Part shown: positions 23,862-43,009 of the stretch, piece after piece
How the letters are laid out: each line of letters opens with the position of its first letter
Numbering within the stretch: position 1 is the first letter of the stretch
Assembly: GCA_964291315.2 (NCBI GenBank)
Contig: OZ219753.1
Span: 64,001 to 128,000, forward strand
Length of the DNA stretch: 64,000 nucleotides
Origin: Candidatus Poribacteria bacterium
GTDB lineage: Bacteria; Poribacteria; WGA-4E; WGA-3G
Direction: 5' to 3'
Made by a program: the position numbers and the translations under genes
Notes under the pieces: generated by a model
Seen by the model: the letters and a program-made list of their open reading frames with translations, nothing else
The model's database searches: none
What the model was told of the DNA's origin: nothing

Positions 23862-24641
23862 CTATCTGTACTCAGATTTGAGTTTACCCCAGGTTGTTGT
23901 CACTTTGTCTTCTGCCTGCACGTTGAGGGTTTTTGCCATCCGAGATTTGACCTCCTCTTCAGTGAATGCTACGCTCCAAATCTTAAATTCATCAACCATC
24001 CCGTTGAAGAAATTAGCGTTGCCTTGGTTTGCTGCGATGCACATACCTGAGGTACCGAAATCCATACGGGCATCCCCGCCGGCTTCTGCTTCGGAATCAA
24101 GCTCTCCATTGATATACATCTTTGCTGTGTTTTTACTTTGTGCCCCTACAAAATAGTACCATTCTGGCTCAAAGGCATCATAATTTGTGAGAGCTTCCAA
24201 CTCTACGCCTTGGGTTGCGAAGTAGAATCCGAATAACACGCCTCCTCGGTTGAAGGTAATGTGAGGTCTCCCGCCGCCTTGGAGTCGATAGAGCAGGTCG
24301 ATACGGTTACCGCCCTCAATTGTATCGTCGGGTTTGAACCAAAATTCTATTGTCATTTCCTTGGGCTGATCTATGTTCATCGGGTCTAGATTAACACTTC
24401 CGTTATTAAAATGGAGTGCGGATCCGACGACTCCTTCTGCCCATTTTGCATTTTTTATATCACCGACGAATCCATTGGGCGATATATCTTCTGCTTCATC
24501 GCCTTGTCCTTCGTCAAAAGGGAGATGAATGAGCAAATCTTTGTCTGGATCGACTGCATGTCCAAACGTAGCGGTCATTAAGAACAGTGAAACTGCGAAA
24601 AAATATAGTAAATGTTTCATCTTTTTATGTTTTTCGGCCAT
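23862..24641 (-). CDS. Secreted LamG/concanavalin-A-like domain protein
   Basis: Signal peptide, FDEGQG, TIEFW, MYING, FNGMVDEFKIW; C-terminal KVTTTWGKLK tail. Confidence 0.88.
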   Translation of the reverse strand: MAEKHKKMKHLLYFFAVSLFLMTATFGHAVDPDKDLLIHLPFDEGQGDEAEDISPNGFVGDIKNAKWAEGVVGSALHFNNGSVNLDPMNIDQPKEMTIEFWFKPDDTIEGGNRIDLLYRLQGGGRPHITFNRGGVLFGFYFATQGVELEALTNYDAFEPEWYYFVGAQSKNTAKMYINGELDSEAEAGGDARMDFGTSGMCIAANQGNANFFNGMVDEFKIWSVAFTEEEVKSRMAKTLNVQAEDKVTTTWGKLKSEYR

Positions 24642-25107
24642 CAGTTGACTACTGATTGCTTGTACTCCTTAATAAGAATAGTAAGATAGGGGTTAACGAA
24701 TATAGAGCGAACACATTTCCTTGTGCGCGCCCAAGCTGACTTCCCCGTTCCGCAACCACAAAAACAGGCGTGTGCCACAGTTTTCGCCAAGCCTGTGTTG
24801 GGGTCTCAAAGGGGACGTGTTTTGGAATATATTGATTATTGTATGTGAAGTGAGGGGGGGGGCACGACTTGCTAAAAAGCAAGACGAACGAACAGCAGCG
24901 CAGATAGGACGAGCGCTGCACAAGGCAGATATTGCTACAGAACCTTGAAATTCCGAGTAAGGGCTTAAGCGCTAAAGCTTTCGTGCATTTCATGGGTGGA
25001 TACATCAATCCTGATAGGCTTAACAGAACCTATCAATGTTACTTTAGGAAGCATCTTCTTTCATACCTTCTATTTTAATTATACATTACACTCTTAAGTT
25101 GTGTCAA
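24642..25107 (-). promoter_or_regulatory. Conserved promoter/leader cassette with C9 tract, copy B
   Basis: TTGACA-N18-TATAAT (25107-25078), hairpin 25013-25034, MKCTK ORF from 24993 to 24649, TTGCTTTTTAGCAA (24869-24882), C9 on minus (24854-24862); homologous to 37641-38160. Confidence 0.75.
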
Positions 25108-25379
25108 GAGCTTTTTTCACCTATATAGAACCATTCATCGGCAGATCTAATCCACCTGCCCCTTTTCTTTAAGTAATTATACCGTACATCCCATTAAAAT
25201 TGCAAGTTACTTTAAGTGTCTATAAGTGGACATTTTAACCTGATAAACCCGCTGGACGTGTGGTATCATGTCCACACTTGATTAACAGCTATTATTTCAA
25301 GTTTATGTTATCTAATTGCATAACAACAGCGCAGGAAATCGCAATGCCTGAGTCCTGCTTGTGCTGTTTTTCTTTTTCC

Positions 25380-25409
25380 TTGACAGCACCTTCCTTCCTC
25401 GTGTATAAT
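25380..25409 (+). promoter_or_regulatory. sigma70 promoter with no downstream protein gene
   Basis: TTGACA-N18-TATAAT. Confidence 0.5.
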
Positions 25410-25507
25410 ATATCTGTATCCTAAAAAATATGCCAATATTCTTCGTGGATACATTTGCATATAAATATCTATGAGCATCGCAATCTCATGGATACTCCTT
25501 TTTTTCG

Positions 25508-25551
25508 GCAAGCAAGGCAACTGTGGTCGTCACCGCAGTTGCCTTGCTTGC
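25508..25551. repeat. 20-bp-stem hairpin
   Basis: GCAAGCAAGGCAACTGTGGT-cgtc-ACCGCAGTTGCCTTGCTTGC; 19 Watson-Crick pairs plus one G-U pair on the plus strand. Confidence 0.85.
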
Positions 25552-25909
25552 GTTAAATACCTTACCATAAGAAAAATAGAATGTCCATAATGGACACTTT
25601 GCTCAAGCCGTGATTTTGCTTACAAGAAAAGTCTGTCTCTGTGTATTTCCCACCCGCGTGATTGCTTGAATTACATGCCGAGCACTTCGGTTGTGTGAAT
25701 TTAGGCACATATAATATCGTGTCAAATTGCGCCGCGATCGGCACATTGGGGATTATCAAGTTCAACTCCGTTGTTGTCTCTATCATCTTTACATTTAAAG
25801 TCCTCACTGCTGACACATTCATAGTGCGCCCCCTTCCAAACTCACTGTGATACGCCCCAGAATATGATAATATGGCTCTGGGATTGTGGACTGGAGCAGT
25901 GCGGAGGTT

Positions 25910-26278
25910 TCAGCCTTTAATTGCAGCGATCATCAGACATGCCCAGCCCCCGATAAATGCCAATCCACCGATGGGTGTAATTGCCCCGAGCCATCGAGCG
26001 CCTGTGAAACACATTATGTAGAGACTTCCAGAAAAGATCAGAATACCAGCAAAGAAACACCAGCCAGATGCAGTCGTGAGATGATTCTGCCACTGTGATG
26101 CTGCCCATGCGGTTGCGATTATTCCGAGACTGTGGTACATCTGGTACCGGACGGCTACCTCGAACGTCTCAAGCATTTCTGGAGAGAGTTTCGATCGGAG
26201 AGCATGTGCGCCAAACGCGCCAAAGACAACTGTAAGTAAGCTCAAGCCTGAACCGAGGGAAAAGAAGAAATTTGACAT
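25910..26278 (-). CDS. DUF423 (YgdD/TMEM256) membrane protein
   Basis: GAFGAH, RYQMYH, FSGSLY, GAITPIGG motifs; start reassigned to MSNF after GGAGG. Confidence 0.92.
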   Translation of the reverse strand: MSNFFFSLGSGLSLLTVVFGAFGAHALRSKLSPEMLETFEVAVRYQMYHSLGIIATAWAASQWQNHLTTASGWCFFAGILIFSGSLYIMCFTGARWLGAITPIGGLAFIGGWACLMIAAIKG

Positions 26279-26384
26279 AAATGCCTCCTTTGCGAAATTG
26301 ATCACTACAATCAATTATACCTTAAATCATGACGGTTATGTCATGCTTTTTTGGCGTTGCTATGAGGCGTAGAGAAATATTCCC

Positions 26385-26413
26385 TTGACATGTTTAATGC
26401 GGTGTGCTACGAT
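26385..26413 (+). promoter_or_regulatory. sigma70 promoter of the EF-G paralogue
   Basis: TTGACA-N17-TACGAT with TGn extension. Confidence 0.55.
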
Positions 26414-26481
26414 ATAATTTTAAACGGCATAGCTCGCTCTATTCCGTGTGGTTAATAGTAAAAGGAGAAATTTTAGGACGT

Positions 26482-28554
26482 ATGACACAATATAGGACAG
26501 AAGAGATCCGGAACATCGCAATTATCGCGCATTCAGGAGCAGGCAAAACCTCACTCGTTGAATCGATGCTTTACAACGGTGGGGCTATTGAGCGCATGGG
26601 GGCTGTTGATAGCGGGAATTCTGTAGCTGACTATGCCGCTGACGAGATAGAGCGCAGAACAACCCTCAACTGTTCGGTCTGTATCGCGGATTGGGAAGGG
26701 CATAAACTAAATATCATTGATACCCCCGGATCTGAAGATTTTTATGGAGACCTCCATAGTGTGCTTCGAGTTGTAGACGCTGTTATCGTGGTTGTAGATG
26801 CAACAACAGGCGTTGAAGGTGGGACGGAGAAGGTGTGGGAGGCTGCGGACAAATATGAATTGCCCCGCCTGATCTTCATCAATAAAATGGATAAAGAGAA
26901 TGCCAGCTTTGAAAACGCGCTTGCGAGTATTGAAGAGATCTTAGAAACCCGGGCAGTTCCAATTCAGCTTCCGATCGGTAAAGAGGATCAATTCGCGGGT
27001 GTCGTTGATGTCATAGAGATGGCTGCGTATCTGGCACCTAATGGCAACAAGCGTGCGCCAAGAACCGACATTCCGGCGGAATTGGAAGCACAAGCTGAAG
27101 GCGCCCGGGAAGCACTCGTTGAGGTTGCTGCGGAAAGTGATGATGAACTCATTGAGAAGTTTTTTGAGGGCGAACTGTCGCACGAAGAAATTCAGAACGG
27201 GGTGCAGCTCGGCATACTCCACAACCAGTTTACACCTATCCTCTGTGGTGCCGCGCTCAACAACGTGGGGGTACAGCCATTGATGGATATGCTTGTGACG
27301 GGATGCCCGTCTCCTGTTGATGTGGGGCCGGTGACAAGCGTTGAGGATCAAGAGGAGCGGCGTGAGCCGTCAACGGATGCCCCAATGTCGGCAGTCGTTT
27401 TCAAATCTATTGCTGATCCGTTTGCCGGACAGCTGAGTTTCTTCCGGGTCTATTCTGGGGTCTTGCAAGCCGATACCCAGGTCAGCAATTCGACGCGTGG
27501 ACAGATTGAACGCCTCGGCAAAACTATGTTTATGAACGGTAAGAGCTCTATAAGCACCGCACAAGTAGAAGCAGGAGACATCGGAGCTATCACTAAGCTT
27601 GCTGCGACCCAAACCGGGGACACTCTCTCTGATAGAGATGCACAGATTAAACTTGTAGGCGTTGAGTTCCCTAATTCCGTTATCTCTTACGCGATTCGTC
27701 CAACCCGCGAGGGCGATGATGAGAAGTTGATGGCCTCTCTCACACGCATGTCTGAGGAAGATCCGGCCTTCAGAATTGAGAGGAATGAATCGACGAAGCA
27801 ACTCCTCGTTTCTGGGCTTGGAGATTTGCACATCACCGTCAATCGTGAGCGGATGAAGGATAAATTCGGTGTAGAAACGGAGGTTTCCACGCCGAAAGTG
27901 CCGTATCAGGAGACCGTTCGTCGAAATGCTCGTAACATCAATGGACGGCACAAACGCCAGTCGGGCGGCAGAGGGCAATTCGGGGATGTTTGGATTAATG
28001 TGGGGCCTCTGCAGCGCGGTGAAGGTTTTGAATTCATTAATAACATTGTGGGGGGTGCAATTCCACGCAACTATATCCCCGCTGTCGAAAAGGGCATCCG
28101 TGAAAGAATGGCGAGGGGGTTTTTAGTAGGTTTCCCAGTCGTTGACATCCAAATAGATCTCTATGACGGCAAATACCATCCTGTTGATTCTTCAGATATG
28201 GCGTTCCAGATCGCTGGTTCCATCGCTTTTGCTGCTGCCGTAGAACAAGCGTCCCCATGTCTGCTTGAACCTATTATGGAGGTCACGATCACTGTGCCCG
28301 AACAGTTTATGGGAAGTATCATCGGTGACTTAAATGGGCGGCGTGGACAGGTGCTCGGTGTTGAACAGGTCGGGAAAAAGCAGGTGATTCAGGCGAACAT
28401 ACCGCTATCGGAGATGCTCCGCTACTCGATTGATCTCAAATCGATGACGAGTGCCCGCGGCAATTTCACGATGGAATTCTCGCGTTATGAGATTGCCCCC
28501 GACGATGTTGCGCAGAAGGTGATTGCTGAGTCAAAAACCGGGGCAGAAGAGTAA
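26482..28554 (+). CDS. fusA: Elongation factor G (stand-alone EF-G2-like paralogue)
   Basis: RNIAIIAHSGAGKT, DTPG, NKMD, RQSGGRGQFG, HPVDSS, LLEPIM; divergent G1 and switch I (ERRTTL). Confidence 0.9.
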   Translation: MTQYRTEEIRNIAIIAHSGAGKTSLVESMLYNGGAIERMGAVDSGNSVADYAADEIERRTTLNCSVCIADWEGHKLNIIDTPGSEDFYGDLHSVLRVVDAVIVVVDATTGVEGGTEKVWEAADKYELPRLIFINKMDKENASFENALASIEEILETRAVPIQLPIGKEDQFAGVVDVIEMAAYLAPNGNKRAPRTDIPAELEAQAEGAREALVEVAAESDDELIEKFFEGELSHEEIQNGVQLGILHNQFTPILCGAALNNVGVQPLMDMLVTGCPSPVDVGPVTSVEDQEERREPSTDAPMSAVVFKSIADPFAGQLSFFRVYSGVLQADTQVSNSTRGQIERLGKTMFMNGKSSISTAQVEAGDIGAITKLAATQTGDTLSDRDAQIKLVGVEFPNSVISYAIRPTREGDDEKLMASLTRMSEEDPAFRIERNESTKQLLVSGLGDLHITVNRERMKDKFGVETEVSTPKVPYQETVRRNARNINGRHKRQSGGRGQFGDVWINVGPLQRGEGFEFINNIVGGAIPRNYIPAVEKGIRERMARGFLVGFPVVDIQIDLYDGKYHPVDSSDMAFQIAGSIAFAAAVEQASPCLLEPIMEVTITVPEQFMGSIIGDLNGRRGQVLGVEQVGKKQVIQANIPLSEMLRYSIDLKSMTSARGNFTMEFSRYEIAPDDVAQKVIAESKTGAEE

Positions 28555-28624
28555 AGGATAGCCAGGTTCACTCTTGCTGCACTTTTGCGTGTGCCTGTTG
28601 AAACGCCTTCACAAGTTCTATGAA

Positions 28625-28770
28625 TAACGCGAGCTTGATAATTATTTGGATCCTCTTAGGAGTGCGAATGTCCAAGAGACCGACAACCTATGCTACAAAT
28701 CCCTTGCAGAGTAGCTGAACAGGTTATCGGACAAAAGCGTATCGCTAGCTCTACTTTCAAACTCACGTTA
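28625..28770. mobile_element. 146-bp MITE-like element
   Basis: Terminal inverted repeats TAACGCGAGCTTGATA and (reverse complement) TAACGTGAGTTTGAAA, 13/16 identical; internal partial REP (CTATGCTAC). Confidence 0.65.
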
Positions 28771-28815
28771 GTAGTAGCATTTAACTATCGTTAGATGCTC
28801 TTAATAGGGAAGCCT

Positions 28816-29319
28816 ATGGAAAACGAGAGTGACAGATCAACATTGTTTACCACTCGGAACACCGAAAGAGCCATGGTCTTCTTTACGATCGTGGGATGTG
28901 CATGTTTAGTAGGTATCTTTCTGCACGAATGGGGACATGAAAAAGAAAAGTGGTATGATGCACTCCGCACCGTTTTGGGAAATACGCCTAGCGTGCTAGC
29001 GTCTACAACACTATTAACCATTTTCAAGGAGGGTTTGGATATTATGTTTACGCGTTGGGAAGCATATCGCGACGAGCGAAAAAAGAAAATTGAAGAAGCT
29101 AGGAAAGCAGGCTATGAAGAAGGCTACAAGGCAGCAAAAGCCGAAAACTCGGATCTCGCTGCGGTTCAGGAGGGAGTTAAGACAGAAGAAGCGTCTGATA
29201 AAGATCGCGAACATCAGATCGCGACTTTCCTTGAGCTCGCTGCGGTTCAGGGCGAAACACTCCGTGAGATCGCTGAGGCACTCAAGGCGGCGGAAGCGTC
29301 TGATAAAGATCGCGAGTAG
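28816..29319 (+). CDS. Hypothetical membrane-anchored protein with a coiled/charged tail and internal duplication
   Basis: Two hydrophobic segments, EEARKAGYEEG, duplicated LAAVQ...EASDKDRE. Confidence 0.6.
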   Translation: MENESDRSTLFTTRNTERAMVFFTIVGCACLVGIFLHEWGHEKEKWYDALRTVLGNTPSVLASTTLLTIFKEGLDIMFTRWEAYRDERKKKIEEARKAGYEEGYKAAKAENSDLAAVQEGVKTEEASDKDREHQIATFLELAAVQGETLREIAEALKAAEASDKDRE

Positions 29320-29375
29320 TAGGAGGGTGTTGCTAGGAACGTTAATCGGTTTAGCCAAGAAGAGACTGACTTAGA

Positions 29376-29530
29376 TAACGCGAGCTTAATAATTATTGGG
29401 TTTATCTTTGGATAGAGAGAGGCTTGCAAAATCGGCCTGTTTTTGCTGCAAGTGTTGCGAATGTCTAGGAGACCGACAGTCTATGCTACAACTATACCGA
29501 ACAGATTATCAGACAAAAAAAGTCTGCTGT
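29376..29530. mobile_element. MITE-like element (right end degenerate)
   Basis: TAACGCGAGCTTAATAATTATT left end; gcgaatgtctaggagaccgacagtctatgctac is shared with the 28625 copy. Confidence 0.55.
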
Positions 29531-29628
29531 GGCTCTTTTGGAGCATAGACTCTTAGATTGGGCATTCGTATGCCCCTAACTGCAAAGCTTCCCCGGTGGT
29601 GTTCTGTTCTGAGAACTACGATATCCGT

Positions 29629-32600
29629 ATGCCGAAACTCAATATTAGACCTACCCACAAGCCGATCCGCGACTATTACGCCACGCTGCAGGTATATGAG
29701 CAACACAAGGCGACACACGAAGGCGCTGTCAGCAACCCGTTCGCCTTCTTGCTTGATACCTGCGCGAGGCAGGTGAATGCGGCGCTCATCCCGCAGTATC
29801 AGATGCATGCTCCCAACGGAAACCGCATCGTTATTGATGGCGCAATCTTGGATGAATATAGCCTGCCGATCGCTTATTGGGAGGCAAAAGACATGGATGA
29901 TGATCTCACCAAAGCCGTGGCAGACAAGCGTGCGGCGGGGTATCCGTTAGACAACATCCTGTTCCAGAACCCGCAGCGTGCTATTTTGTATCAGAACGGA
30001 GCAGAGGTGCTCGATGTAGACATTACTGCGCCGGTCTCTCTGATCGCTGCCCTTGAATGTCTGTTCGCTTATGTGCCGCCGGCATTGGAAAATTGGCAGT
30101 CGGCTGTCAACGACTTCAAAGAACATGTGCCGGCTCTCGCAGGCAAGTTGAAAGAGCTCATTAACGAACGACACGCGGTGGATACGGCATTCCAAGCAGC
30201 GTTCTCCAACTTCTATGAGACCTGTCGCACGGCAATTGACCCGGCACTCTCACGCGATGAAGTCGAAGAGATGCTGATCCAACACATCCTCACCGAACGC
30301 ATCTTCCGCACGGTGTTTAATAACTCCGATTTCACGCGCCGGAATATCATCGCAGGCGAGATTGAAAATGTGGTGGATAAACTGATCCATAGAGCGTTCA
30401 GCCGGGATGTGTTTCTTGAGCCTTTAGATCGTTTCTACAGTGCTATTGAACAGGCGGCGCTATTCTGCAAAGACTTCTCACAGAAACAGAGCTTCCTCAA
30501 TACGTTCTATGAGAAGTTCTTTCAAGGGTTCTCTAAAGATACCGCCGACACACACGGGATTGTCTACACGCCGCAGCCGATCGTGGATTTCATGGTCAAC
30601 AGTGTGCAACATATATTAGAGGCCGAGTTTGCTCGTTCGCTGTCGGATAGTGGCGTGCATATCATAGACCCGTTTGTCGGCACGGGCAACTTCATCGTGC
30701 GGCTGATGCAGTCCCTGGATCCGATCTCCCTGGAGCGAAAATACACCGCAGATCCGCCTGAACTCCACTGCAACGAGGTGATGCTTTTGCCGTATTACAT
30801 TGCGAGTCTGAACATCGAGCAGGAGTATTTCCGTCGGACGGGTGCGTATCTGCCGTTTGAGGGGATCGTGCTGGCGGATACGTTCGAGCTACTTGAGCCG
30901 GAGCAGGGACAGCTCTTCACGCGCGAAAACACAGAGCGGGTGAAAGGACAGAAGTCATCGGAGATGTTCGTGGTGATCGGCAATCCGCCCTACAACACCG
31001 GGCAGGACGACGAGAACGACAATAACAAGAATAGGAAGTATCCGCTCATGGATGCAAGAGTTCGGGACACCTATTCGCAAGATTCAAAGGCCTCGAACAA
31101 AAAAGCCCTCTCGGATCCGTATGTGAAAGCGATCCGCTGGGCCTCCGATCGTATTGGAGCAGAGGGCATCGTGGCACTTGTGACGAACAATAGTTTTCTG
31201 GACGGCATCGCGTTTGATGGGATGCGGAAGCATCTGGCACAGGACTTCACTAAGATTTATCATATTGACATGAAAGGAGATGCCCGCACCTCGGGCGAGC
31301 GGCGCCGAAAAGAGGGCGGCAATGTTTTTGACGATCAGGTCCGGGTGGGTGTCGGTATCAGTTTCTTCATCAAAAAGGCTGGGTCGCCGGGTGCCTCTGC
31401 GGAGGTTTGGCTCTATGCTGTTGACGACTATATGACATCTCGGGAGAAGCAGGATGTGTTGGTCGAGTTCGGCGACTATACAAGTGTTCCATTGAAGCGA
31501 TCGGTGTTAGATACGAGGTATACTTGGCTCACGGAAGGTCTTCGTTCTGAGTTTGAGACCTTTGTTCCGATGGGAACTAAGTCAGCGAAGGCGGCACGAG
31601 GAACGGGATCGGGCGCGATTTTCAAAACCTATAGCAACGGCGTGAGTACTAATCGTGATGCGTGGGTCTATAATTTCAACCGAGACGCGCTCACTGAAAA
31701 TATAAGTCGGATGATAGAAAATTACAACGCAGAAGTGGCGCGTTGGACACAACGGAGAAATAGAGAGGTGCCCGTTGATAATTTTGTGGTCTATGACGAT
31801 ACAAAAATCAAGTGGAGTTCGACGTTAAAGCAGAAACTACAGAGCGGTCAGACGACAGCATTTACAGATGCGAAAATCCGTTCCAGTCTCTATAGACCTT
31901 TTACAAAATCCAACCTCTACTTTGACCGAATGATGAACCATAGGGTAGCAGGCTTTCCATCTATCTTCCCTACGCCGGAGACGGAATCAGAAAATCGGGT
32001 GCTCTGTGTCAACGGTATCGGCAGCAAGAAACCTTTTCATCCATTGATGGTAGCTGCGATTCCGTGTCTTGGTATAATCGATGCGAATCAGTCGTTTCCC
32101 TTCTATATCTACGACGAAGACGGTACAAACCGCCGCGAAAATATCACCGATTGGGCGTTATTCACGTTCCGCTCTCACTACAAGGACGATGCCATCAGCA
32201 AGTGGGACATCTTCCACTATACCTATGGGCTCCTGCATCATCCCGACTATCGCCAGAGATACGAGGCGAACCTCAAGCGCGATCTGCCGCATATCCCCTT
32301 CACCGCAGACTTCTGGGCATTCGCTACCGCAGGCGCACAACTCGCAGAGCTCCACGCCAACTACGACTCTCAACCGAAATATGAAAAACTCAGGTTGATG
32401 CAGAACGCCGAGGTGCCGCTCAATTGGCGTGTGGAGAAGATGCAGCTGTCGAAAGACAGAACACAGTTGAAATATAACGAGTTCTTGACGTTGGAGGGTA
32501 TCCCTGCCGAGGCGTTTGCTTATCGGTTAGGCACTCGTTCAGCGTTGGCGTGGGTGATAGATCAGTATTGTGTGAAGACGCACAATCGGAGCGGACTGGT

Positions 32601-32745
32601 CAACGATCCGAATTGTGCGGATGCGCCGCGGTATATTGTGGATTTAGTGGCGCGCGTTATCAGTGTCAGTCTTCGGACGGTAGAGATTGTTAAGAATTTA
32701 CCGGAATTGTCTTTAGCCACTGAGTCACCCGGACCTTACACGTAA
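29629..32745 (+). CDS. Single-chain restriction-modification enzyme (nuclease + N6-adenine MTase + Type ISP/LlaBIII-like TRD, no helicase)
   Basis: IDG..WEAK (PD-(D/E)xK), GIVYTP, DPFVGTGNF, IGNPPY, SLYRPF, DIFHYTYGLLH. Confidence 0.88.
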   Translation: MPKLNIRPTHKPIRDYYATLQVYEQHKATHEGAVSNPFAFLLDTCARQVNAALIPQYQMHAPNGNRIVIDGAILDEYSLPIAYWEAKDMDDDLTKAVADKRAAGYPLDNILFQNPQRAILYQNGAEVLDVDITAPVSLIAALECLFAYVPPALENWQSAVNDFKEHVPALAGKLKELINERHAVDTAFQAAFSNFYETCRTAIDPALSRDEVEEMLIQHILTERIFRTVFNNSDFTRRNIIAGEIENVVDKLIHRAFSRDVFLEPLDRFYSAIEQAALFCKDFSQKQSFLNTFYEKFFQGFSKDTADTHGIVYTPQPIVDFMVNSVQHILEAEFARSLSDSGVHIIDPFVGTGNFIVRLMQSLDPISLERKYTADPPELHCNEVMLLPYYIASLNIEQEYFRRTGAYLPFEGIVLADTFELLEPEQGQLFTRENTERVKGQKSSEMFVVIGNPPYNTGQDDENDNNKNRKYPLMDARVRDTYSQDSKASNKKALSDPYVKAIRWASDRIGAEGIVALVTNNSFLDGIAFDGMRKHLAQDFTKIYHIDMKGDARTSGERRRKEGGNVFDDQVRVGVGISFFIKKAGSPGASAEVWLYAVDDYMTSREKQDVLVEFGDYTSVPLKRSVLDTRYTWLTEGLRSEFETFVPMGTKSAKAARGTGSGAIFKTYSNGVSTNRDAWVYNFNRDALTENISRMIENYNAEVARWTQRRNREVPVDNFVVYDDTKIKWSSTLKQKLQSGQTTAFTDAKIRSSLYRPFTKSNLYFDRMMNHRVAGFPSIFPTPETESENRVLCVNGIGSKKPFHPLMVAAIPCLGIIDANQSFPFYIYDEDGTNRRENITDWALFTFRSHYKDDAISKWDIFHYTYGLLHHPDYRQRYEANLKRDLPHIPFTADFWAFATAGAQLAELHANYDSQPKYEKLRLMQNAEVPLNWRVEKMQLSKDRTQLKYNEFLTLEGIPAEAFAYRLGTRSALAWVIDQYCVKTHNRSGLVNDPNCADAPRYIVDLVARVISVSLRTVEIVKNLPELSLATESPGPYT

Positions 32746-32847
32746 CGCTGAAACAAGCAACGTGAGATCGGTTGTTTCGGTTGTGCAAGGTCCCTCTTTG
32801 TTGAAAAAAACGTCAAGTGATTATCAAACTCCGCTTAATATTTACGT

Positions 32848-34266
32848 TTAACTGTCCAAATGGAAGATTGCCATCTTCAATTCGGTCATTTCCTCTATAG
32901 CGTATTTTGGTCCTTCCTTACCCATACCGCTCTCTTTAACGCCCCCGTATGGCATGAGGTCTGCTCGCCACTGTGTTCCCCAGTTGACCATGAGGTTGCC
33001 GGATTCAACTTCTCGGACGAACCGCATTGCCCAGTCGATGTTTTGCGTAAAAATGGCGGCGCTCAGTCCGTAGTTTGTGTCGTTGGCGACGGAGATGGCT
33101 TCGTCAATATCGTTAACTTGCGTCACGCCGACGGCGGGTCCGAAAACTTCGTCACATGAGATTTTCATCTCCGGTTTGACGTTTGCGAGGATTGCGGGTG
33201 TAACGAATTGGTCTTGCTTATCGCCGCCTGTCAGGAGTTCAGCTCCGTCTGCGACGGCTTCTTGGATCCATTCGGTGACGCGGGTGGCATCTCCTTCGCG
33301 GATCATTGGCCCCATGCGTGTGCCTTCTGCCAGGGGATCACCGGTGTTGATTTTGGTGACTTCGGCCTTGAAGGCATCTAAGAAGTCGGCGTAGATTTTC
33401 TCGTGTGCGATGACGCGCTGCGTTGAAATGCAGACTTGTCCTGCATTAGAATAACCGGAGGCGGCTGCTGCGCGTGCGACTTTTTCGGGGTCAGCGTCGG
33501 GCATGACAATAAGCGGTGAATTCGATCCGAGTTCCATTGTAACGCGTTTCAAACCGGCGACACGGCATATATGCTCTCCGACATCCCGGCTGCCGGTGAA
33601 GGTAATCTTCCGGACGCGTGGGTCTGCGCAGAGGGTATCCCCGATTTCGCCCCCGGGGCCCGTGACACACTGAATTGCTTCAGGTGGTGTGCCTGCTTCT
33701 AGAAAGAGTTCGACGAGTTTGAGGGCGGAGAGCGGGGTGTCTGTCGCGGGCTTAATGATAATAGCGTTTCCGCCGGCAATTGCGGGCCCGGCTTTGTGGC
33801 AGACGAGGTGCAATGGGAAGTTAAACGGACTAATCCCTGCAACGACACCACACGGCATGCGAACTGTAAAGCCGAGTTTGCCTTTGGCGCCCGGTGCTCC
33901 TTCGAGGGGAATAGTTTCACCTGTCAAGCGTTTGGCTTCTTCTGCGGAGAGGGCGATAATTTCAGCGGCGCGGGTTGCTTCCATTGTTGCTTCAGCGAGG
34001 ATTTTTCCTTCTTCGCGAGTGATAACTTCAGCAAGTTCGGCTGACCGCTCCATCATCAGGTCTGCGACTTTGTGCAGGATTTCGTAGCGTTCATAGCCGG
34101 TCATGCCTGCCATGATTTTTGCGCCGCGCTCCGCCGTTTGAATAGCGGTTTCAACATCGGATGCATTTCCTTTCGGCACGGTATCAACAACCGACCCGTC
34201 AAAGGGGCTGAGGACTTCAATTTTGTCGGATTTATCAATCCATTTTCCACCTACGTGCATTTGCAT
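32848..34266 (-). CDS. Aldehyde dehydrogenase
   Basis: PFNFP, FTGS, ELGSN, GQVCIS, EVFGP, YGL motifs. Confidence 0.95.
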   Translation of the reverse strand: MQMHVGGKWIDKSDKIEVLSPFDGSVVDTVPKGNASDVETAIQTAERGAKIMAGMTGYERYEILHKVADLMMERSAELAEVITREEGKILAEATMEATRAAEIIALSAEEAKRLTGETIPLEGAPGAKGKLGFTVRMPCGVVAGISPFNFPLHLVCHKAGPAIAGGNAIIIKPATDTPLSALKLVELFLEAGTPPEAIQCVTGPGGEIGDTLCADPRVRKITFTGSRDVGEHICRVAGLKRVTMELGSNSPLIVMPDADPEKVARAAAASGYSNAGQVCISTQRVIAHEKIYADFLDAFKAEVTKINTGDPLAEGTRMGPMIREGDATRVTEWIQEAVADGAELLTGGDKQDQFVTPAILANVKPEMKISCDEVFGPAVGVTQVNDIDEAISVANDTNYGLSAAIFTQNIDWAMRFVREVESGNLMVNWGTQWRADLMPYGGVKESGMGKEGPKYAIEEMTELKMAIFHLDS

Positions 34267-34538
34267 AATGTATTCTTCTCCATTTTTACTACTGCGTTAG
34301 ACTGTATGCAGGTTAATTTTTAGATTTTAGCAGTGTTCAAGGCGTTAAGTTCATCTTCAGAGAGTACGTTGGTAAAAAAATGAGCGGGGCGAAAAGCCCA
34401 AATGAACATCACAAATTTCACAGGTGTGATGCCAATTCCCATCGTAACGTGGCACATTCCCTCTGATAAAGTCAATATGGACAATCTTTATGAGGCCGCT
34501 TTCATGTTTTCATAGTGTGTTCTTTACTCCGCTAGGAG

Positions 34539-35015
34539 TTACTCATCACGGCGGATCCAACTGACGACATCTTCCGCTTCACCGGTTCCGCCTTCAACGC
34601 CATCGCTTCCGAAGGATATGAGGTCGTATCCATATCGGTCGTGGTTGCCTGGACGGATATAGATATAAGGGTTGCCCCAAGGATCTTCTGTAATTGGAAT
34701 TTGAATGTAGGGTGCTACCCAATTTATAGGGCTGGGTGGTGCTTCAGGTTTCTCCCAGAGCGCTTTCAAACCTTGTTCGGTTGAAGGGTAGTCCCCATTA
34801 TCCTTAGCGTATCTATCTAGAGCGATGCCGAGTGTCTCTATATCCTCAGCGGCTTGTGTTTGTAGGGCCCGTCCTGCTTGTCCGAGCAGTCTGGGGGCCA
34901 AAAGCACTGCGGCAATAATTCCGAGGATAACGACACCGACCAAAATTTGTACGGACGTTAATCCTGCTTGTTTAGACTCAATTGATTTCACACATTTCCT
35001 CCACAATCTGTGCAT
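34539..35015 (-). CDS. gspG: Type II secretion major pseudopilin GspG-like
   Basis: Hydrophobic N-terminal helix after QAG, YPSTEQGLKAL, DPWGNPY, SFGSDGVEGG. Confidence 0.85.
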   Translation of the reverse strand: MHRLWRKCVKSIESKQAGLTSVQILVGVVILGIIAAVLLAPRLLGQAGRALQTQAAEDIETLGIALDRYAKDNGDYPSTEQGLKALWEKPEAPPSPINWVAPYIQIPITEDPWGNPYIYIRPGNHDRYGYDLISFGSDGVEGGTGEAEDVVSWIRRDE

Positions 35016-35383
35016 GCATGCTTAATCTGACGTAGCAGAGACAAGAGAGCGTTCCGCTCGGCTCTCAGTTATCAGTACCCCGTTTGTGGTGGTAAAAAGG
35101 TTATTACTCGCTACACGATTTGCTGACTATTGACTGCTATAACGTTGACAACCGTTTTTTTAAGTGTATCATAATTACATGAATTGTGTCAATTTTATTT
35201 GAGAGGTGGATGCTTGCCCTGTACCGCTTGCTAAAAGCTTGGGTGTGAGTCTACGTCTAAAGCTATAGGCGAGCGTGGTTTGAAATTAGCGTTGACTTTC
35301 TGCTAAGAATGGTGTATACGTATAATATAGCGTGTGCTGGATGTAAGCTTCCAAAATCTATAAGGCAAAGGCGGAATTTGGAG

Positions 35384-36592
35384 ATGGCAAGAACAGTTTG
35401 CATTGTTGGAACAATGGATACGAAAGGCGTAGAATTCTCATTCGTCAAATCTCAGATAGAATCGGCGGGCGTGTCAACATGTGTCGTCGATACAGGTATA
35501 TTGGGAGAACCGCGCTTAACCCCGGACGTTTCTGCGGGTGAAGTTGCCCGGGCTGGCGGTTCATCGCTCCAGGCCCTGCAAGCTGAAGCCGATCGAGGTA
35601 ACAGTGTTGCTGTGATGGCAGAGGGCGCTGCTACGCTTGTGGCTGAGAAATACGCCGATGGAGAAATTGATGGGATCATCTCGCTCGGCGGCTCTGCGGG
35701 GACGACGATTGGCACTACAGCGATGCAAGCGGTTCCGGTCGGTGTGCCAAAGATTATGGTTTCAACCCTGGCATCGGGGGATACAGGCCCGTATGTGCAA
35801 TCGAAAGATATTTGTATGATGTACTCTGTCGTGGATATTGCGGGTATCAACCGGCTGTCCCGTCGGATTCTGGCCAATGCTGCTGGTGCAATCGTCGGTA
35901 TGGTGAACACAGCGTTACCGGCAGTCACAGCAGACAAGCCGCTCATCGCAGCGACGATGTTCGGGGTAACAACCCCGTGTGTTACAAGAGCCCGCGAAGT
36001 TCTTGAAGCCGCTGGCTATGAAGTACTCGTTTTTCACGCAACCGGTACGGGTGGGCAGGCCATGGAAGACCTTGTGAGGGATGGTTTCCTTGTGGGGGTG
36101 TTGGACGTGACAACCACAGAACTCGCTGACGAATTGGTAGGTGGAATTCTCAGTGCTGGTCCTGACCGGTTAGAAGCTGCGGGAGAACTCGGACTGCCAC
36201 AAGTTGTGGCGCCCGGGGCATTGGATATGGTGAATTTTGGACCTCCTGACACGGTGCCGGAGCAATTCAGCGACCGGCTTTTTTATCAGCACAATCCGAC
36301 AGTAACACTGATGCGGACGACACCTGAAGAAATGGCTGAACTGGGACGGATCATGGCGCGTAAACTTCGTGAGGCGCGTGGGCCCACAACGGTCCTCATT
36401 CCAACCCAAGGGGTCTCGGCGATTGACAAGACCGGACAGCCCTTTGATGTCCCAGAAGCGCGGTCTGCATGGATTGAGACTCTGAAAGCACATATCGGTG
36501 ATAATGTGAGAATTATTGAGATGGACGCTCACATCAACGATGACGAATTTGCAACGAGACTTGCAGAAACGTTATTAGCGAGCATGGCATAG
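35384..36592 (+). CDS. Tm-1-like ATP-binding protein (UPF0261)
   Basis: GTMDTKG, GGSAGT, MFGVTTPC, FHATGTGG, GALDMVNF motifs. Confidence 0.9.
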   Translation: MARTVCIVGTMDTKGVEFSFVKSQIESAGVSTCVVDTGILGEPRLTPDVSAGEVARAGGSSLQALQAEADRGNSVAVMAEGAATLVAEKYADGEIDGIISLGGSAGTTIGTTAMQAVPVGVPKIMVSTLASGDTGPYVQSKDICMMYSVVDIAGINRLSRRILANAAGAIVGMVNTALPAVTADKPLIAATMFGVTTPCVTRAREVLEAAGYEVLVFHATGTGGQAMEDLVRDGFLVGVLDVTTTELADELVGGILSAGPDRLEAAGELGLPQVVAPGALDMVNFGPPDTVPEQFSDRLFYQHNPTVTLMRTTPEEMAELGRIMARKLREARGPTTVLIPTQGVSAIDKTGQPFDVPEARSAWIETLKAHIGDNVRIIEMDAHINDDEFATRLAETLLASMA

Positions 36593-36603
36593 AGAGGAAA
36601 TAC

Positions 36604-37503
36604 ATGGTGAAGACCTATAGAACACTTGCCCAAGCAGATGTTGATCACTTTGTTGAGAGAGGACATGTTGTCTTGAAAGGCTGCTTCTCGCGCGAGCTGG
36701 CAGAAGAGTGGCGATCATTCGCTTTTGAGCGCTTGGGTTACGATCCAGACGATCCTACGACTTGGGAGCAACCGCGTGTTCACCTACCTTCTATGAACAG
36801 GGTGGTGATTGCAGATGTTGCGCCGAGGGCATGGGCGGCTATCTGTGATCTGCTGGGTGGGGAAGACAGGATTGTCAATCCTTGGAGCGACGGGAAACCG
36901 GGCTGGAGCGACGGCTTTATTATCAATTTTGCATTGGGTGCAGAGACAGCGTGGCAACCGCCTTCGCCAGAAGTAGGCGGTTGGCATAAAGATGGCGATT
37001 TTTTTCGCCACTTTCTGGATAGTCCGGAACAGGGGCTGCTTACGATTGTCGTCTGGTCGGATATCCATCCGAAAAGCGGTGGAACGTTCGTCGCTTGTGA
37101 TTCGGTCCAGCATGTTGCGCAGCGGTTGTATGAACACCCGGAGGGGTTATTACCGGGCGATTTCGGTGGACTCATCGAAAAATGTAAAGATTTTGTAGAA
37201 ATTACAGGCGAGGCAGGAGATGTTGTGTTGCTGCACCCGTTCGTCTTGCATGCAGCTTCACAGAATCCCTCTGGCCGTGCGCGTTTCATAACGAATCCGC
37301 CTGTTGCTCTCAGGGAGCCGATGGATTTCAATCGTGAAGATTCAGGTGATTTTTCACCGGTGGAATTGGCGGTTCTGCGCGGGTTGCAGAAGGAGCGTTT
37401 GGCTTTCAAGCCGCTGGCACCGCGTGAACGCCTTGTGCCAGCGCGCATCCAACGCCAGCAGAAGATGCTTGCAGAGCAGAAAGAGCGGCTCGGAATGGCT
37501 TAA
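36604..37503 (+). CDS. PhyH-like Fe/2OG dioxygenase
   Basis: WHKD facial-triad start, GGT, GDVVLLHPFVLHA. Confidence 0.8.
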   Translation: MVKTYRTLAQADVDHFVERGHVVLKGCFSRELAEEWRSFAFERLGYDPDDPTTWEQPRVHLPSMNRVVIADVAPRAWAAICDLLGGEDRIVNPWSDGKPGWSDGFIINFALGAETAWQPPSPEVGGWHKDGDFFRHFLDSPEQGLLTIVVWSDIHPKSGGTFVACDSVQHVAQRLYEHPEGLLPGDFGGLIEKCKDFVEITGEAGDVVLLHPFVLHAASQNPSGRARFITNPPVALREPMDFNREDSGDFSPVELAVLRGLQKERLAFKPLAPRERLVPARIQRQQKMLAEQKERLGMA

Positions 37504-37640
37504 CAGTTGGGGCGAGGCTTTCTCATCTCGCCCTGTTTCTCCAAAGCGCCACGGCAGTTCACTGCACAGCCACGAAACGTTCTCAACCTCATGCAAATAG
37601 GGTCGGCAATTTGAATGGCTCTGGATTAGAAATAAAGATC

Positions 37641-38160
37641 TTGACATACTTAACAGTTTAAGATATAATTAAAATCAAAAGTATGGGAAAAGACAATCCG
37701 AGGGTAACACCGATGGGTTCTGTTAAGTCTATCAAGGTTAATCAATGAAATGCATGAAAGATTTGTACACCAACATCACATCCGAAACGGTGGCAGTATT
37801 TAGCCCACTAATCCTGCGCAGCGGTTTCCGTATCCCGTCGGTGCTGCTGTCCAGTTGCTTTTTAGCAACTTACCCCCCCCCTCTACTTCACACACAGTAA
37901 GTATTTATTCCACCTATCCCAAAATACGTACAGGTTCCGTCGAGCTACCCACTTTGCGCATGTTTGCCGGCTTTTGCAACAGCACATCGAGCCCCTCCTG
38001 AAGCGCGTCATGTGGGGGAGGATTGATGGAATGAAACTCGATCCCATACTAAAAGAAGCAGGATCCCTCTTTTTTTATACGTTTCATATTGCTGTTTCGT
38101 CTTGACACATTTTAGGCGGCTTTCGGCACTGCTATTTAACCTCATCACAAGGAGATTAGA
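37641..38160 (+). promoter_or_regulatory. Conserved promoter/leader cassette with C9 tract, copy A
   Basis: TTGACA-N17-TATAAT (37641-37669), hairpin 37712-37733, MKCMK ORF 37745-37900, TTGCTTTTTAGCAA (37855-37868), C9 (37873-37881). Confidence 0.75.
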
Positions 38161-38883
38161 ATGAATCCATACACCCATTTAATAAAGTTAACAAACATCG
38201 CAGTGTTAGCTACAATACCGCTGCTCTTCGGGTGCGCCAACTTAACGGAAACCCTCTCCGCAAGTGGTTCTAACCACTTCCGCAAGACACGATGGGGGTA
38301 CACCCAAGAGATGGTCCTCGTTGCAGAGCAAGGCAAACGCTTGTTTCTCAGAAAAGGCAATACGCTCGTTTTCAATCACCGCATTGGCGATGTGCCGCTC
38401 AAGATTGTCTATACGTTCAAGAACAATAGGCTGAGAGCCGCGGGCTATATCACCGATCGACCCGTAAAGGGGGCAGATAAACTCGTAGATCATACCGTTA
38501 AAGAACTCGGGGAACCCTCGAAAAAGCTTGAGGATGAAATGATCTGGCTTGACGATGAAACGCTGGTTTATTTGAACGCTTATACCTCCCAGATAATTGA
38601 CCGAGGGGGGAAATACAAGGCATCGGGAGGTATCTTCAATCTCTTGGAGCCGCCCGAAGAAGAGGAAGAAGAGAAAGAGACCGAAACACTCTGGGACGGC
38701 GTGTGGGCATACATCGATCTAGACTTTTACATAGAGATGCGCGAAGTGGATTTCCCGTTAGATGAGATGTCTCTTTATGAGAAACAGCTGTTTGGTGTGC
38801 TGAAAAGAAGGACAATTAAGACCTATATTACAAATAGTGGGAAACTCTCTATTTCAGGTGAACTCCCTATTTCAGATAGATAG
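38161..38883 (+). CDS. Hypothetical lipoprotein
   Basis: RBS AAGGAG, lipobox LFGC, FRKTRWG motif, acidic EEEEEE stretch. Confidence 0.75.
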   Translation: MNPYTHLIKLTNIAVLATIPLLFGCANLTETLSASGSNHFRKTRWGYTQEMVLVAEQGKRLFLRKGNTLVFNHRIGDVPLKIVYTFKNNRLRAAGYITDRPVKGADKLVDHTVKELGEPSKKLEDEMIWLDDETLVYLNAYTSQIIDRGGKYKASGGIFNLLEPPEEEEEEKETETLWDGVWAYIDLDFYIEMREVDFPLDEMSLYEKQLFGVLKRRTIKTYITNSGKLSISGELPISDR

Positions 38884-38980
38884 GAACCAACGCAGTGGTT
38901 TGATAAATATTTCACTGTCTTCTTCGCCCAAAGAAAACGGGCCAAGTATCCCTAAATACTAAGATTTTTTAAACTTACGT

Positions 38981-39128
38981 TAACGCGATCTTGATAATTA
39001 TTAGGATACAAGAAGAGGCACAGGAAACCAACAGGCTATGCTACAAGAAATGCACAGGCTAACAGCCTATGCTACAGACAGGTTATGCTACAAAATAACC
39101 TGCTCAATCTTTTTTCAAACTTACGTTC
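38981..39128. mobile_element. ~148-bp MITE-like element with tandem REP units
   Basis: Left TAACGCGATCTTGATAATT, right TTTCAAACTTACGTT; three TATGCTAC units, including GCACAGGCTAACAGCCTATGCTAC (39052-39075). Confidence 0.6.
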
Positions 39129-39157
39129 ACTACACTTTCCACCAAAGGAGAAACATT

Positions 39158-42100: not shown

Positions 42101-43009
42101 CAGATGCTACACACCTCTGTGGAGGGCTTGCCACCTATGACAGGGCCATGGCTCTGGATGATCGTCCCCACGCTCGATGCTTGGGGCAGCGATGCGGCAC
42201 ATTCCGGCAAGGATTACCTTGCAGCGGCCAGCGGTGGAAAAGTAACGGAGCTCAAAATCGCCAATAACGGCGCAACGGAAGGGAGCCCGGTCGGAGATAA
42301 GGTCTGGACAGTAGGCGAATTATCCCCCACCGGCGGTGACAATCTCAACGAGATGGCGAACGCCACCGGCTTGGGCTCCGGCCGTATAGACACTCACGTC
42401 GCCTACGGTTCGCTCACCTTGAAATCACCGAGAGTACAAAAGACGACCATGCTCGTCGGCAGCGACGATTCCGTGAAAGTCTGGCTCAACGGGACGCTCG
42501 TTCACAACCATGCTGTGATCCGAGGAGCGGATGATTACCAAGAACAGTTCTCCGTTACGTTGAGACAGGGCTACAACATTTTATTGGTTGCTGTCTACGA
42601 AGCTCATGGAGGATGGAGCGGGTTTTTCGGGTTCGCCCGTGGCACCGACTATGAGGTGATTCCCCCCGGCACTGTGAGGGTTGCGGGTAATGGCCCCATT
42701 CGCCCTGTCTTGCCTGAAGAGACAGTCCTCCTCCACAACTACCCGAACCCGTTCAATCCGGAGACGTGGATACCGTATCAACTTTCGGAAGCTGCGGAGG
42801 TGACGGTGCGTATCTACGCAGCCAACGGGGCGTTGGTGCGGACGTTGGATGTTGGGCATCAACCCGCAGGTCGCTACAACACCCGGACTCGTGCTGTGCA
42901 TTGGGATGGCAAAAATGAGGTGGGTGAGTCTGTTGCGAGCGGGATCTATTTCTATACGTTCACCGCACGCAACTTCACGGCTACACGGAAGATGCTCATC
43001 CGGAAATAG
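39158..43009 (+). CDS. Secreted di-heme cytochrome c domain + internalin-like LRR + beta-sandwich + FlgD/T9SS-like C-terminal domain
   Basis: RBS AAGGAG; signal peptide; CLNCH...RMP and CFGCH; about 17 LRRs of ~22 aa (LxxLxLxxNxISDVSPL); GSDDSVKVWLNG; NYPNPFNPETWIPY...RKMLIRK. Confidence 0.88.
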   Translation: MKTARGIYRLFCILTILGFVFTSWTTAHAQQNSAQKAFLVLEQNCLNCHGKHGSFTENLIIDEDGPASLIESGAVVPGVPLVSKLYTRLTTKNLAKRMPLGQPQLDEASIRAIGDWILQGAPNWVVEHDVTFINTSKILTVMQQHLQTLDPFDRPYARYFTMTHLYNAAETGEALNAYKVALAKLVNSLSWGFDIHNPQPVDAAETVFYIDVRNYEWDKQDAWSQIEDAYPYGMEFEGKPQLQAKLTRLRRLTKTQLPYVYADWFLATAVLPTLYHDILDLPGTDRELERKLDVEVQRNLQTAPGVRVWRAGMNDSGVSNHNRVVERHTSRYGAYWKSYDFAGSTGAQNVFTHPLSFQQDGGEVVFNLPNGLQAYYISDATGNRLDDAPTNIVSNPAADDPVVRNGLSCFGCHTEGVKRFEDEVRAVVRQTKNPAFDKAQAVRLYVAQAVMDRLLDEDTARYKAALEKTGGVFGGIEPVHRFYEAYQGDVDGAYAAASVGLERKTFLSKIREKSSLQRLGLTPFLNGKNVKRDVWTSRFPTVVSALHSPEREPEPVDPDPVRPNPVAGDGVYIPDANLRTAIVEALRLAPNESITVEAMKRLTHLVADRKGIRDLTGLEQAINLERIELRHNAVSDLTPLAELRNLNNIKLRDNAITDVSPLSNLINVDWMGLEENDISDVSPLSGLVKLNGIGISGNPVTDVSSLAGLTSLEGIDAWNTRISDFSALAKLPRLSWIEMGNEASISAVPSLTGLKALKRLILNNCSIRDVSGLAGLPRLEWLELVNNAITDISALRSLTSLRTLNLDANAISDVSPLAGLTNLEVLYLENNVISDVSPLAGLTKLQRLRLQSNPNLRGLSALAKLTRLEWLDLVNTDIQDISALRSLTGLQTLLLQANAISDVSPLAGLTGLKALYLEENDISDVSPLAGLKNLEQLDLRDNDISDVSPLAGLTNLKRLDLRKNDIEDFSPLDALRSQTFIQMLHTSVEGLPPMTGPWLWMIVPTLDAWGSDAAHSGKDYLAAASGGKVTELKIANNGATEGSPVGDKVWTVGELSPTGGDNLNEMANATGLGSGRIDTHVAYGSLTLKSPRVQKTTMLVGSDDSVKVWLNGTLVHNHAVIRGADDYQEQFSVTLRQGYNILLVAVYEAHGGWSGFFGFARGTDYEVIPPGTVRVAGNGPIRPVLPEETVLLHNYPNPFNPETWIPYQLSEAAEVTVRIYAANGALVRTLDVGHQPAGRYNTRTRAVHWDGKNEVGESVASGIYFYTFTARNFTATRKMLIRK
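41480..42020 (+). repeat. Nucleotide-level tandem LRR repeats (66-bp unit; 267-bp block duplication)
   Basis: atWtcagatgtttcgccYct recurs at 41588, 41654, 41855, 41921 and 41987. Confidence 0.8.

Follow-up and report, generated by a model that had tools for sequence, protein, structure and literature searches.

A portable promoter-leader cassette of Poribacteria in which a variable poly-C run may set the reading frame of a probable translation-coupled transcription attenuator

In well-studied bacteria, envelope proteins and restriction-modification genes are the usual phase-variable classes, and the fim promoters of Bordetella carry a C-stretch. Here, we describe a repeated promoter-leader cassette that occurs twice in a stretch of 64,000 nucleotides (nt) from a Candidatus Poribacteria genome (assembly GCA_964291315.2, contig OZ219753.1, positions 64,001 to 128,000; referred to as the window), once upstream of the gene for an exported LamG protein (copy A) and once upstream of the gene for a lipoprotein-like protein (copy B). 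Judged from its sequence, the element combines two known kinds of regulation, namely simple-sequence phase variation and leader-peptide attenuation. Like the simple-sequence phase variation of Campylobacter, Neisseria, and Helicobacter, it contains a G/C homopolymer whose length appears to differ between close relatives, it serves envelope proteins and DNA methylases, and about one third of its copies are in the open frame; in addition, the same genome has runs of G8-9 inside methylase genes. In the known cases, which include the ON/OFF tracts of Campylobacter (treated in part of 10.1101/2022.11.09.515450), the tract is part of the regulated gene's coding region or of a promoter spacer, whereas here it appears to lie at the end of a separate upstream open reading frame (uORF), with a terminator or translational coupling as the presumed read-out.

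Leader-peptide attenuation is exemplified by pyrL of the pyrBI operon, where translation of the leader open reading frame (ORF) must keep step with the polymerase across the terminator (PMC5021804, in its part on pyrL). In the Rho-dependent attenuators tnaC, speFL, and cruR, a stalled ribosome masks the Rho utilization (rut) site, and Rho-based read-outs of invertible phase switches have been reviewed in the same place (PMC12360218, in the sections concerned). The cassette resembles these systems in having a promoter-proximal leader ORF whose ribosome would decide on a nearby terminator. It differs from them in that pyrBI/pyrL, tnaC, speFL, and cruR sense a metabolite or a nucleotide pool, whereas the input here is probably the frame set by the homopolymer, and in that it is multi-copy and serves unrelated genes. 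No antiterminator pairing was found, although no systematic search for one was made; such pairing would be unneeded because the proposed logic is that of a ribosome reading through the hairpin, as in pyrL. The leaders of Salmonella mgtA and mgtCBR contain the proline-codon ORFs mgtL and mgtP. These leaders and coupling that depends on elongation factor P (EF-P) share with the cassette the consecutive proline codons upstream of a termination signal, whereas the prolines of the cassette are encoded by a variable, pure CCC homopolymer and the frames past it are arranged with stops. Highly similar upstream regions before non-homologous genes within a genome have furthermore been described as putative mobile promoters (PMC3575422). 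The unit found here comprises about 300-450 nt with a whole regulatory leader and not a promoter only. In the literature searched (full texts, with supplementary files outside the scope), no repeat inside a bacterial uORF was found described.

Weighing the evidence given below, we consider it rather probable that the cassette is a portable, phase-variable, frame-dependent, translation-coupled transcription attenuator of Poribacteria. Directly visible in the DNA are a promoter, an open frame, a variable homopolymer, frame-specific stops, and a terminator-like signal inside one frame. In the proposed mechanism, a strong sigma-70 promoter would start the leader, the first part of which would be a translated uORF of about 40-45 codons; this is the sole step with sequence conservation behind it, and we infer the translation itself. 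The uORF would run into the pure C run, and the length of the run would set the frame in which the ribosome exits. This length may change by slipped-strand mispairing in the DNA, and slippage of RNA polymerase or of the ribosome on CCC-C may add frame mixing. In the OFF state, an early stop would release the ribosome, after which the downstream hairpin would form and transcription would end. In the ON state, the long frame would cross the hairpin and its T-run, often reaching the start of the main gene, and the ribosome trailing the polymerase would prevent termination; this state may also couple translation. Polyproline stalling, with its dependence on EF-P and proline, may further tune the coupling, and the G-poor stretch past the run could load Rho.

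The original prediction had described a portable module of promoter and leader that recurs before unrelated genes, which was borne out on a much larger scale. Rather than only two copies with uniform decay, the genome-wide search gave a family of about 27 copies in the same genome, together with at least nine further diverged copies. With copy A as query, BLAST gave 10 matches in this genome (4.4 Mb in four contigs), iterated nhmmer gave 30, of which 25 span more than 200 profile positions, and a sequence-only covariance model, built without structure from 23 of the genome's own copies, found 27 places. The same model, with 30 candidates scored per genome, was also applied to 60 other genomes of the genus; 39 of them have matches with an E value of at most 1e-3, at least 1-7 per genome. 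BLAST of copy B against the genomes of 40 relatives gave only two weak, short matches, so a profile search was needed. The likeness between copies A and B begins about 35 nt upstream of the -35 box, continues until about 75 nt past the C run, and fades from there; it is far above chance. A further view of the genus was obtained from 30 sampled loci with a run of C12 or longer (one per genome), of which 26 were assessable: 20 of these show the uORF layout, in which a frame of 103-181 nt starts with ATG and leads into the run, with stops soon after, and two lie inside methylase ORFs. Whole-genus counts of the C12 pattern were discarded because overlapping windows and contig ends made of poly-C (4 of the 30 sampled loci) had raised them. 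A pattern scan of metagenomes with the flanks of the run returned a single chance match, on an unrelated AT-rich contig.

Nearly all copies start with TTGACA, a spacer of 17-18 nt, and a TATAAT-like hexamer, preceded by an A-rich stretch, and in the family the uORF extends over about 40-45 codons to the run. From the conserved ATGAAAG to the run, 23 copies of this genome contain no stop codon in the uORF frame, compared with 65 and 63 in the two other frames; over the uORF region, the reverse strand has 50-67. Two copies, one truncated and one degenerate, had been dropped before this count, and the degenerate one has a stop. Copies with a mutated second ATG retain an in-frame ATG or GTG 6-9 nt upstream. 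In all 25 loci of relatives, the C run is reached by an open frame that starts with ATG and spans 109-219 nt (mostly 118-133); this proportion is biased because the most open frame was chosen, whereas the constant length and the shared N-terminus are unbiased. What the original prediction had taken for an MKCxK micro-ORF is in fact the start of a 51-codon ORF in copy B and of a 119-codon ORF in copy A. Its proposal that leader translation and a slippery tract form the core is supported, but it had missed the ORF of about 45 codons that ends in the C run, and both the spacer block ACTTAASAGT and the proposed operator turned out to be features of a subfamily. In three loci of relatives (L062, L064, and L082), the uORF ATG is located 6-8 nt past the -10 hexamer, so that these leaders may be leaderless mRNAs.

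The absence of stops bears on the possibility that the element is simply a strong promoter with a long 5' untranslated region, spread by gene duplication or recombination, with uORF, run, and hairpins as passengers. This explanation is very improbable. It would fit the location of most copies before two expanded families (the Lamin-tail and FGE-sulfatase proteins, see below), with which they were possibly carried along, the weak constraint on the peptide, and the widespread reuse of promoters before unrelated genes in prokaryotes (PMC3575422). A passenger frame would, however, gather stops, and a homopolymer decays without selection; moreover, the same anatomy is found genus-wide with very different sequences (the 20 of 26 loci with C12 or longer mentioned above), and the placement of the terminator and the frame logic are conserved.

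The peptide itself seems to matter little. Its N-terminus M-K-x-L/R-x-x-N/T-T recurs with some synonymous changes, column entropies at the three codon positions (1.15, 0.98, and 1.03) show no third-position excess, and the ratio of nonsynonymous to synonymous polymorphism (pN/pS) amounts to 0.52-1.13 in seven groups. Peptide-level selection on the uORF was rejected as weak on the basis of the latter values. Indels shift the frame between copies, and the C-termini differ by frame. The features that appear to be kept are the open frame, its length, and a loose M-K-x-L/R..T motif at the N-terminus, and not the peptide. It is also highly improbable that the uORF is a functional small protein (a small gene with its promoter) or that the element is the remnant of an insertion sequence or miniature inverted-repeat transposable element. 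ORFs of 48-191 codons are indeed present, their N-terminus recurs, and the element is multi-copy and portable; yet a Pfam search of the uORF peptides gave no family, pN/pS is that of a weakly constrained peptide, and the C-termini vary by frame between copies. There is likewise no transposase near the cassette, Pfam gave no match for ORFs within or next to it, and the stretch of 800 nt upstream of copy A (flank 25116-25910) occurs only once in the genome; neither inverted repeats at the ends nor duplicated target sites were noticed, in work without a systematic search for them.

A structured RNA with the 5' hairpin had been proposed as part of the module. The hairpin is instead a subfamily feature: among 23 aligned copies, the full stem is present in six, and it is absent or partial in 13, while RNAalifold found no consensus structure on 23 copies. 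The statement that no Rfam family is recognizable held: Rfam gave no match at gathering score over the whole window, and around copy A, with E values up to 10 admitted, only two chance-level matches (E 2.5-5). As an RNA family or riboswitch, the cassettes match no curated model and have only one internal covarying helix. This helix, of 13 pairs inside the uORF, has 74 % of its cells paired compared with 30-44 % in slid controls, and 22 double-change cells compared with 10.4 in shuffles (0/500), values that are favoured by the derivation of the helix from one family member. Together with the missing third-position excess and the frame-shifting indels, it provides some ground for viewing the element as a structured non-coding RNA, either a riboswitch-like leader or a small RNA, with an incidental open frame. 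We regard this as very improbable, since a single stop-free frame is a signature of translation, the Rfam and RNAalifold searches were blank, the test of the helix is favoured by its derivation from one member, and most copies lack the 5' hairpin.

At the 3' end of the uORF, about 200 nt past the -10 box, stands the run, a homopolymer of C without interruption. It consists of 6-10 C in this genome and of 8-17 C in the 25 loci of relatives; "exactly nine C", as the original prediction had it, is correct for copies A and B and not for the family. All 20 family runs of at least eight are C on the sense strand. Between genomes, five of five distinct pairs with flanks at least 85 % identical differ by 2-8 C, after three self-duplicate pairs and two repeated entries of one pair had been removed. 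Assembled contigs from four sequencing runs of one study were also compared with the window. The contig of copy B from run X2 has C7 where the window has C9, and otherwise differs by three letters and two gaps over 891 nt. Run X1, as a separate assembly, repeats C9 in A and B, although the sample may be the same; its contig spans the run of copy A without a difference. The Logan contigs are uninformative near copy A, where a repeated word interrupts them.

Past the run, one frame always meets a conserved TAA within 10-20 nt, the same TAA that ends the uORF of copy B, and stops follow 6-30 nt past the run in one or two frames. In relatives, the second frame usually also stops within 36 nt, and the third remains open for 130-270 nt. 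A hairpin with a T-run is found within +40 to +150 of the run in 22 of the 25 leaders of relatives, in 18 of them at -14 kcal/mol or better, against rates in shuffles of 5.3 % (any) and 0.2 % (-14 kcal/mol or better); both the terminator finder and the mononucleotide shuffles were simple custom scripts. It is also present in seven of nine further diverged leaders of this genome and in three of its 18 main-family copies (copy A, C4:1000441, and C1:489718), and in the 22 leaders of relatives and in copy A, its position is 55-130 nt past the run. Among 25 leaders with a terminator, one frame is open beyond the T-run in every case, both other frames stop before the hairpin in 19, and the assembled run length gives the long frame in seven, or about one third. 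The long frame ends at most 40 nt from the main start in 15 of 32 loci compared with 3.9 expected, and in 8 of 25 compared with about 1.2 expected when seven related DUF4007 loci are left out. In the DUF4007 genes, where a cassette-type leader is found in six relatives of different species as well as in this genome (C4:1812615), the first stop of the long frame overlaps the TTG or GTG start. The different fates of the three frames past the run suggest how the switch would be read. The blocks listed in the original prediction are all present in both copies at the positions it gave; its anatomy was incomplete in that it missed the terminator-like hairpin past the run in copy A and the differing fates of the frames.

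The composition of the run also allows for a purely physiological leader-peptide attenuator, in which the run would serve as polyproline and/or as a C-rich loading site for Rho, the leader would sense EF-P activity, proline supply, or translation capacity through Rho or an intrinsic terminator, and the differences in length would be noise from mutation. In every case the run encodes 2-6 prolines close to the end of the uORF, and it is predicted to be unpaired (pairing probability of at most 0.28) in 15 of 21 leaders; the approximately 60 nt from its start contain 2-11 % G and 19-61 % C, a G-poor zone that falls short of the usual length of rut sites, and the genome has genes for Rho and EF-P. 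In Escherichia coli reporters, termination in the absence of EF-P rose when a PPPPPP motif preceded either a rut site or the pyrL terminator (PMC5021804, in the reporter experiments it covers), and uORF-dependent Rho attenuators are known from tnaC, speFL, and cruR (PMC12360218, same sections as above). Despite these points, we judge this explanation unlikely. Mixed proline codons and a rut site that is not a homopolymer would do, yet the run is pure C up to a length of 17; the frame-specific stops and the single open frame through the terminator (25/25) would be roleless if the frame were fixed; the assembled states are distributed about 1:2 between long and short (seven of 25 long); and run length differs in all five close between-genome pairs. 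Two narrower ideas were rejected as well. Pairing of the poly-C run with a G-rich ribosome-binding site as a general mechanism fails as the run is mostly unpaired and G-rich sites occur only before the DUF4007 genes. Rho attenuation as the main read-out was first favoured and was demoted once the intrinsic terminators had been found.

Several observations weigh against the frame-dependent attenuator that we prefer. Fifteen of the 18 main-family copies of this genome, including copy B, are without a proximal terminator; for these, which comprise the large Lamin-tail and FGE subfamilies, Rho polarity or translational coupling would be candidate read-outs. The region past the run is poor in stops, which makes a long open frame at any one locus an event of only moderate improbability (shuffle P 0.002-0.7), and the hairpin of copy A taken alone is no stabler than shuffles (z -0.18). 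Within this genome, all five close paralogue pairs have equal run lengths, and its runs all have 6-10 C while those of relatives reach 17. Run lengths are those of a metagenome assembly consensus, in which homopolymer errors or a population consensus may misstate the frame. The Shine-Dalgarno sequence before the uORF is weak in many copies. Finally, the loci of the family are related and not independent, and the read-out of copy B, which is in the short frame with no clear terminator, is less certain.

The features of both copies are collected in Table 1.

Table 1. Coordinates of the cassette features and served genes in the window.
Feature	Position	Strand	Description
Copy A, whole cassette	24673..25138	-	UP-like A-rich stretch, promoter, and leader, ending shortly before the LamG gene's own ribosome-binding region
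Copy A, extent	25107 to ~24690	-	Cassette homologous to copy B
Copy A, promoter	25078..25107	-	TTGACA, 18-nt spacer, TATAAT; 12/12 consensus matches
Copy A, 5' hairpin GATAGGTTCTGTTAAGCCTATC	25013..25034	-	Upstream of the uORF start; folds at -8.1 kcal/mol
ATGAAATGCAYGAAAG block	24993 in A; 37745 in B	- in A; + in B	
Copy A, putative uORF	24649..25005	-	ATG 25005 or 24993, stop TAG 24651-24649; 119 codons; 24649..25008 in the program's ORF list
Copy A, poly-C run	24854..24862	-	C9, read as Pro-Pro-Pro
Copy A, out-of-frame conserved TAA	24836..24838	-	15 nt past the run; stop of the short frame
Copy A, terminator-like hairpin and TTTTT	24795-24765 and 24764-24760	-	Inside the long frame; minimum free energy -13.7 kcal/mol
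Copy A, served gene	23862..24641	-	Exported Laminin_G_3 protein (Pfam PF13385, E 3.4e-21); signal-peptide-like N-terminus
Copy B, extent	37641 to ~37960	+	Cassette homologous to copy A
Copy B, promoter	37641..37669	+	TTGACA, 17-nt spacer, TATAAT; 12/12 consensus matches
Copy B, 5' hairpin GATGGGTTCTGTTAAGTCTATC	37712..37733	+	-2.8 kcal/mol; two G-U pairs
Copy B, putative uORF	37745..37900	+	51 codons, ending in YPPPLLHTQ and a stop; short frame, ends at the conserved TAA
Copy B, palindrome TTGCTTTTTAGCAA	37855..37868	+	Inside the uORF; TTGCTTTTTAGCAA also in copy A
Copy B, poly-C run	37873..37881	+	C9
Copy B, served gene	38161..38883	+	Lipoprotein-like exported protein; N-terminus ...LLFGC; no Pfam family

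Copy A appears to carry the full design, that is, a uORF, C9, the TAA of the short frame, and a hairpin with T-run. Its uORF is assembled in the long frame and ends 7 nt before the ATG of the LamG gene, and its homology with the closest copies extends from window positions 25138/25120 to 24689/24698. In copy B, no terminator hairpin passed the filter; by eye, a weak stem of 5 bp can be seen before a T7 near 38070. The sequence ACTTCACAYACARTAA follows C9 in both copies, and TTTTTAGC is kept family-wide, whereas the palindrome TTGCTTTTTAGCAA occurs in some copies only. A third perfect promoter match (TTGACA, 18 nt, TATAAT) lies at 25380-25409 on the plus strand, facing away from copy A, within a lineage-specific 1.2-kb stretch (24672-25907) and with no long ORF directly downstream on the same strand.

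The portability of the cassette follows from the orthologues of both downstream genes, which are without it. Fifty LamG-relative loci were compared, which are 43-81 % identical except for one (24 %, in a non-Poribacteria metagenome-assembled genome), often keep the neighbouring DUF423 gene, and have spacers of 132 to about 1350 nt. None of these 50 loci has the cassette or a C run of at least six in the relevant place. Likewise, none of 28 homologue loci of the copy B lipoprotein in the genus has a C run of at least seven within 1 kb upstream, and the family model at E 0.01 or better found nothing in the 79 LamG and lipoprotein homologue loci. In two related strains, contigs join 24672 to 25907 through about 316 nt. 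Both copies thus appear to be acquisitions of this lineage that extend as far as the ribosome-binding region native to the gene. Absence from orthologous loci (0/50 and 0/28 for A and B) is also what the cassette has in common with putative mobile promoters.

The genes served are varied, and the two in the window are unrelated as originally described, one encoding a Laminin_G_3 protein and the other a protein outside any Pfam family. In the genome as a whole, the module has expanded to some 36 genes, the majority of them for exported proteins. The cassettes precede exported proteins of about 950 amino acids with a Lamin-tail domain (LTD; at least 12 by N-terminal likeness, with the domain confirmed in four of four scanned), FGE-sulfatase-domain proteins (four scanned; about seven share the N-terminus), Laminin_G_3 proteins (domain in two of three candidates), a TonB-dependent receptor, a TonB_C protein, lipoproteins, and DUF4007. 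The diverged leaders precede proteins of 929-961 and of about 480 amino acids whose N-termini resemble DNA methyltransferases by eye, as well as one protein with an FGE-family N-terminus and two lipoproteins.

Outside the cassette family, the genome contains 45 other G/C runs of at least eight, 28 of which belong to four repeat families with 8, 7, 7, and 6 copies. In the one locus examined for each family (G000:C4:1078112, C4:2470476, C1:431360, and C4:1873430; L106-L109, run at 3001-3008/9), the run lies inside or at the 3' end of the frame of a restriction-modification methylase. These methylases are Eco57I/MmeI-like, Type III mod-like, and N6_N4_Mtase, and in L108 the Type III mod-like gene is split into two overlapping frames exactly at the G8 run. 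The four families share the motif CTTATCA[CG]AGATTA-C8/9-GCTT (about 30 nt) in either orientation and in different genes; in the G orientation, stops follow the run in two of three frames. Judging by these arrangements, the loci are likely phase-variable restriction-modification systems.

Other repeats were noted in the window. Direct repeats ATAACGCGAGCTTGATAATTATT... are located at 28624-28661, 29375-29412, 12970-13007, and 38980-39017, upstream of several genes. In contigs of runs X1 and X2, about 28642-28661 is connected to about 29467-29470 with the omission of about 805-826 nt, so a variant without the ORF 28795..29319, which stands between two ATAACGCGAGCTTGATAATTATT repeats, seems to exist. 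At 29481-32777, the summed contig depth is 10-50 times that of the flanks in all four sequencing runs, with many loose ends; the ORF for 1049 amino acids at 29596..32745 is probably built of a domain that recurs in many copies across these metagenomes. Within the long ORF 39038..43009, a unit of 264 nt is repeated in tandem at 41452-42048 (77 % and 62 % identity). A short repeated block ending in ...TTTTTTCAAACTCACGTTAGT precedes three different genes (15467-15529, 28710-28772, and 39103-39127), possibly as a second regulatory element that these genes share.

Work on phase variation has been confined almost entirely to cultured pathogens, with the repeat in the regulated gene or in its promoter. 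If the reading preferred here is true, a repeat placed in a separate uORF and read out by an attenuator would allow any gene to be made switchable in a modular fashion, which would account for the service of a single cassette to unrelated genes. It would also provide a signature for annotation, as long C runs in the genus mostly mark these leaders (20 of 26 sampled loci). More tentatively, and with rather less confidence than we place in the attenuator as such, the cassette could be viewed as a plug-in stochastic switch of 300-450 nt that can be recombined before any gene and would render it phase-variable through translation-coupled antitermination. Some 36 envelope and phage-defence genes of this genome would then be under such control and, together with the methylase genes that contain G runs, would form a large "phasome", to which polyproline could add a physiological input from EF-P or proline. 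For the organism, an abundant, uncultured sponge symbiont, the preferred reading would mean that it hedges its bets in surface proteins and in phage defence.

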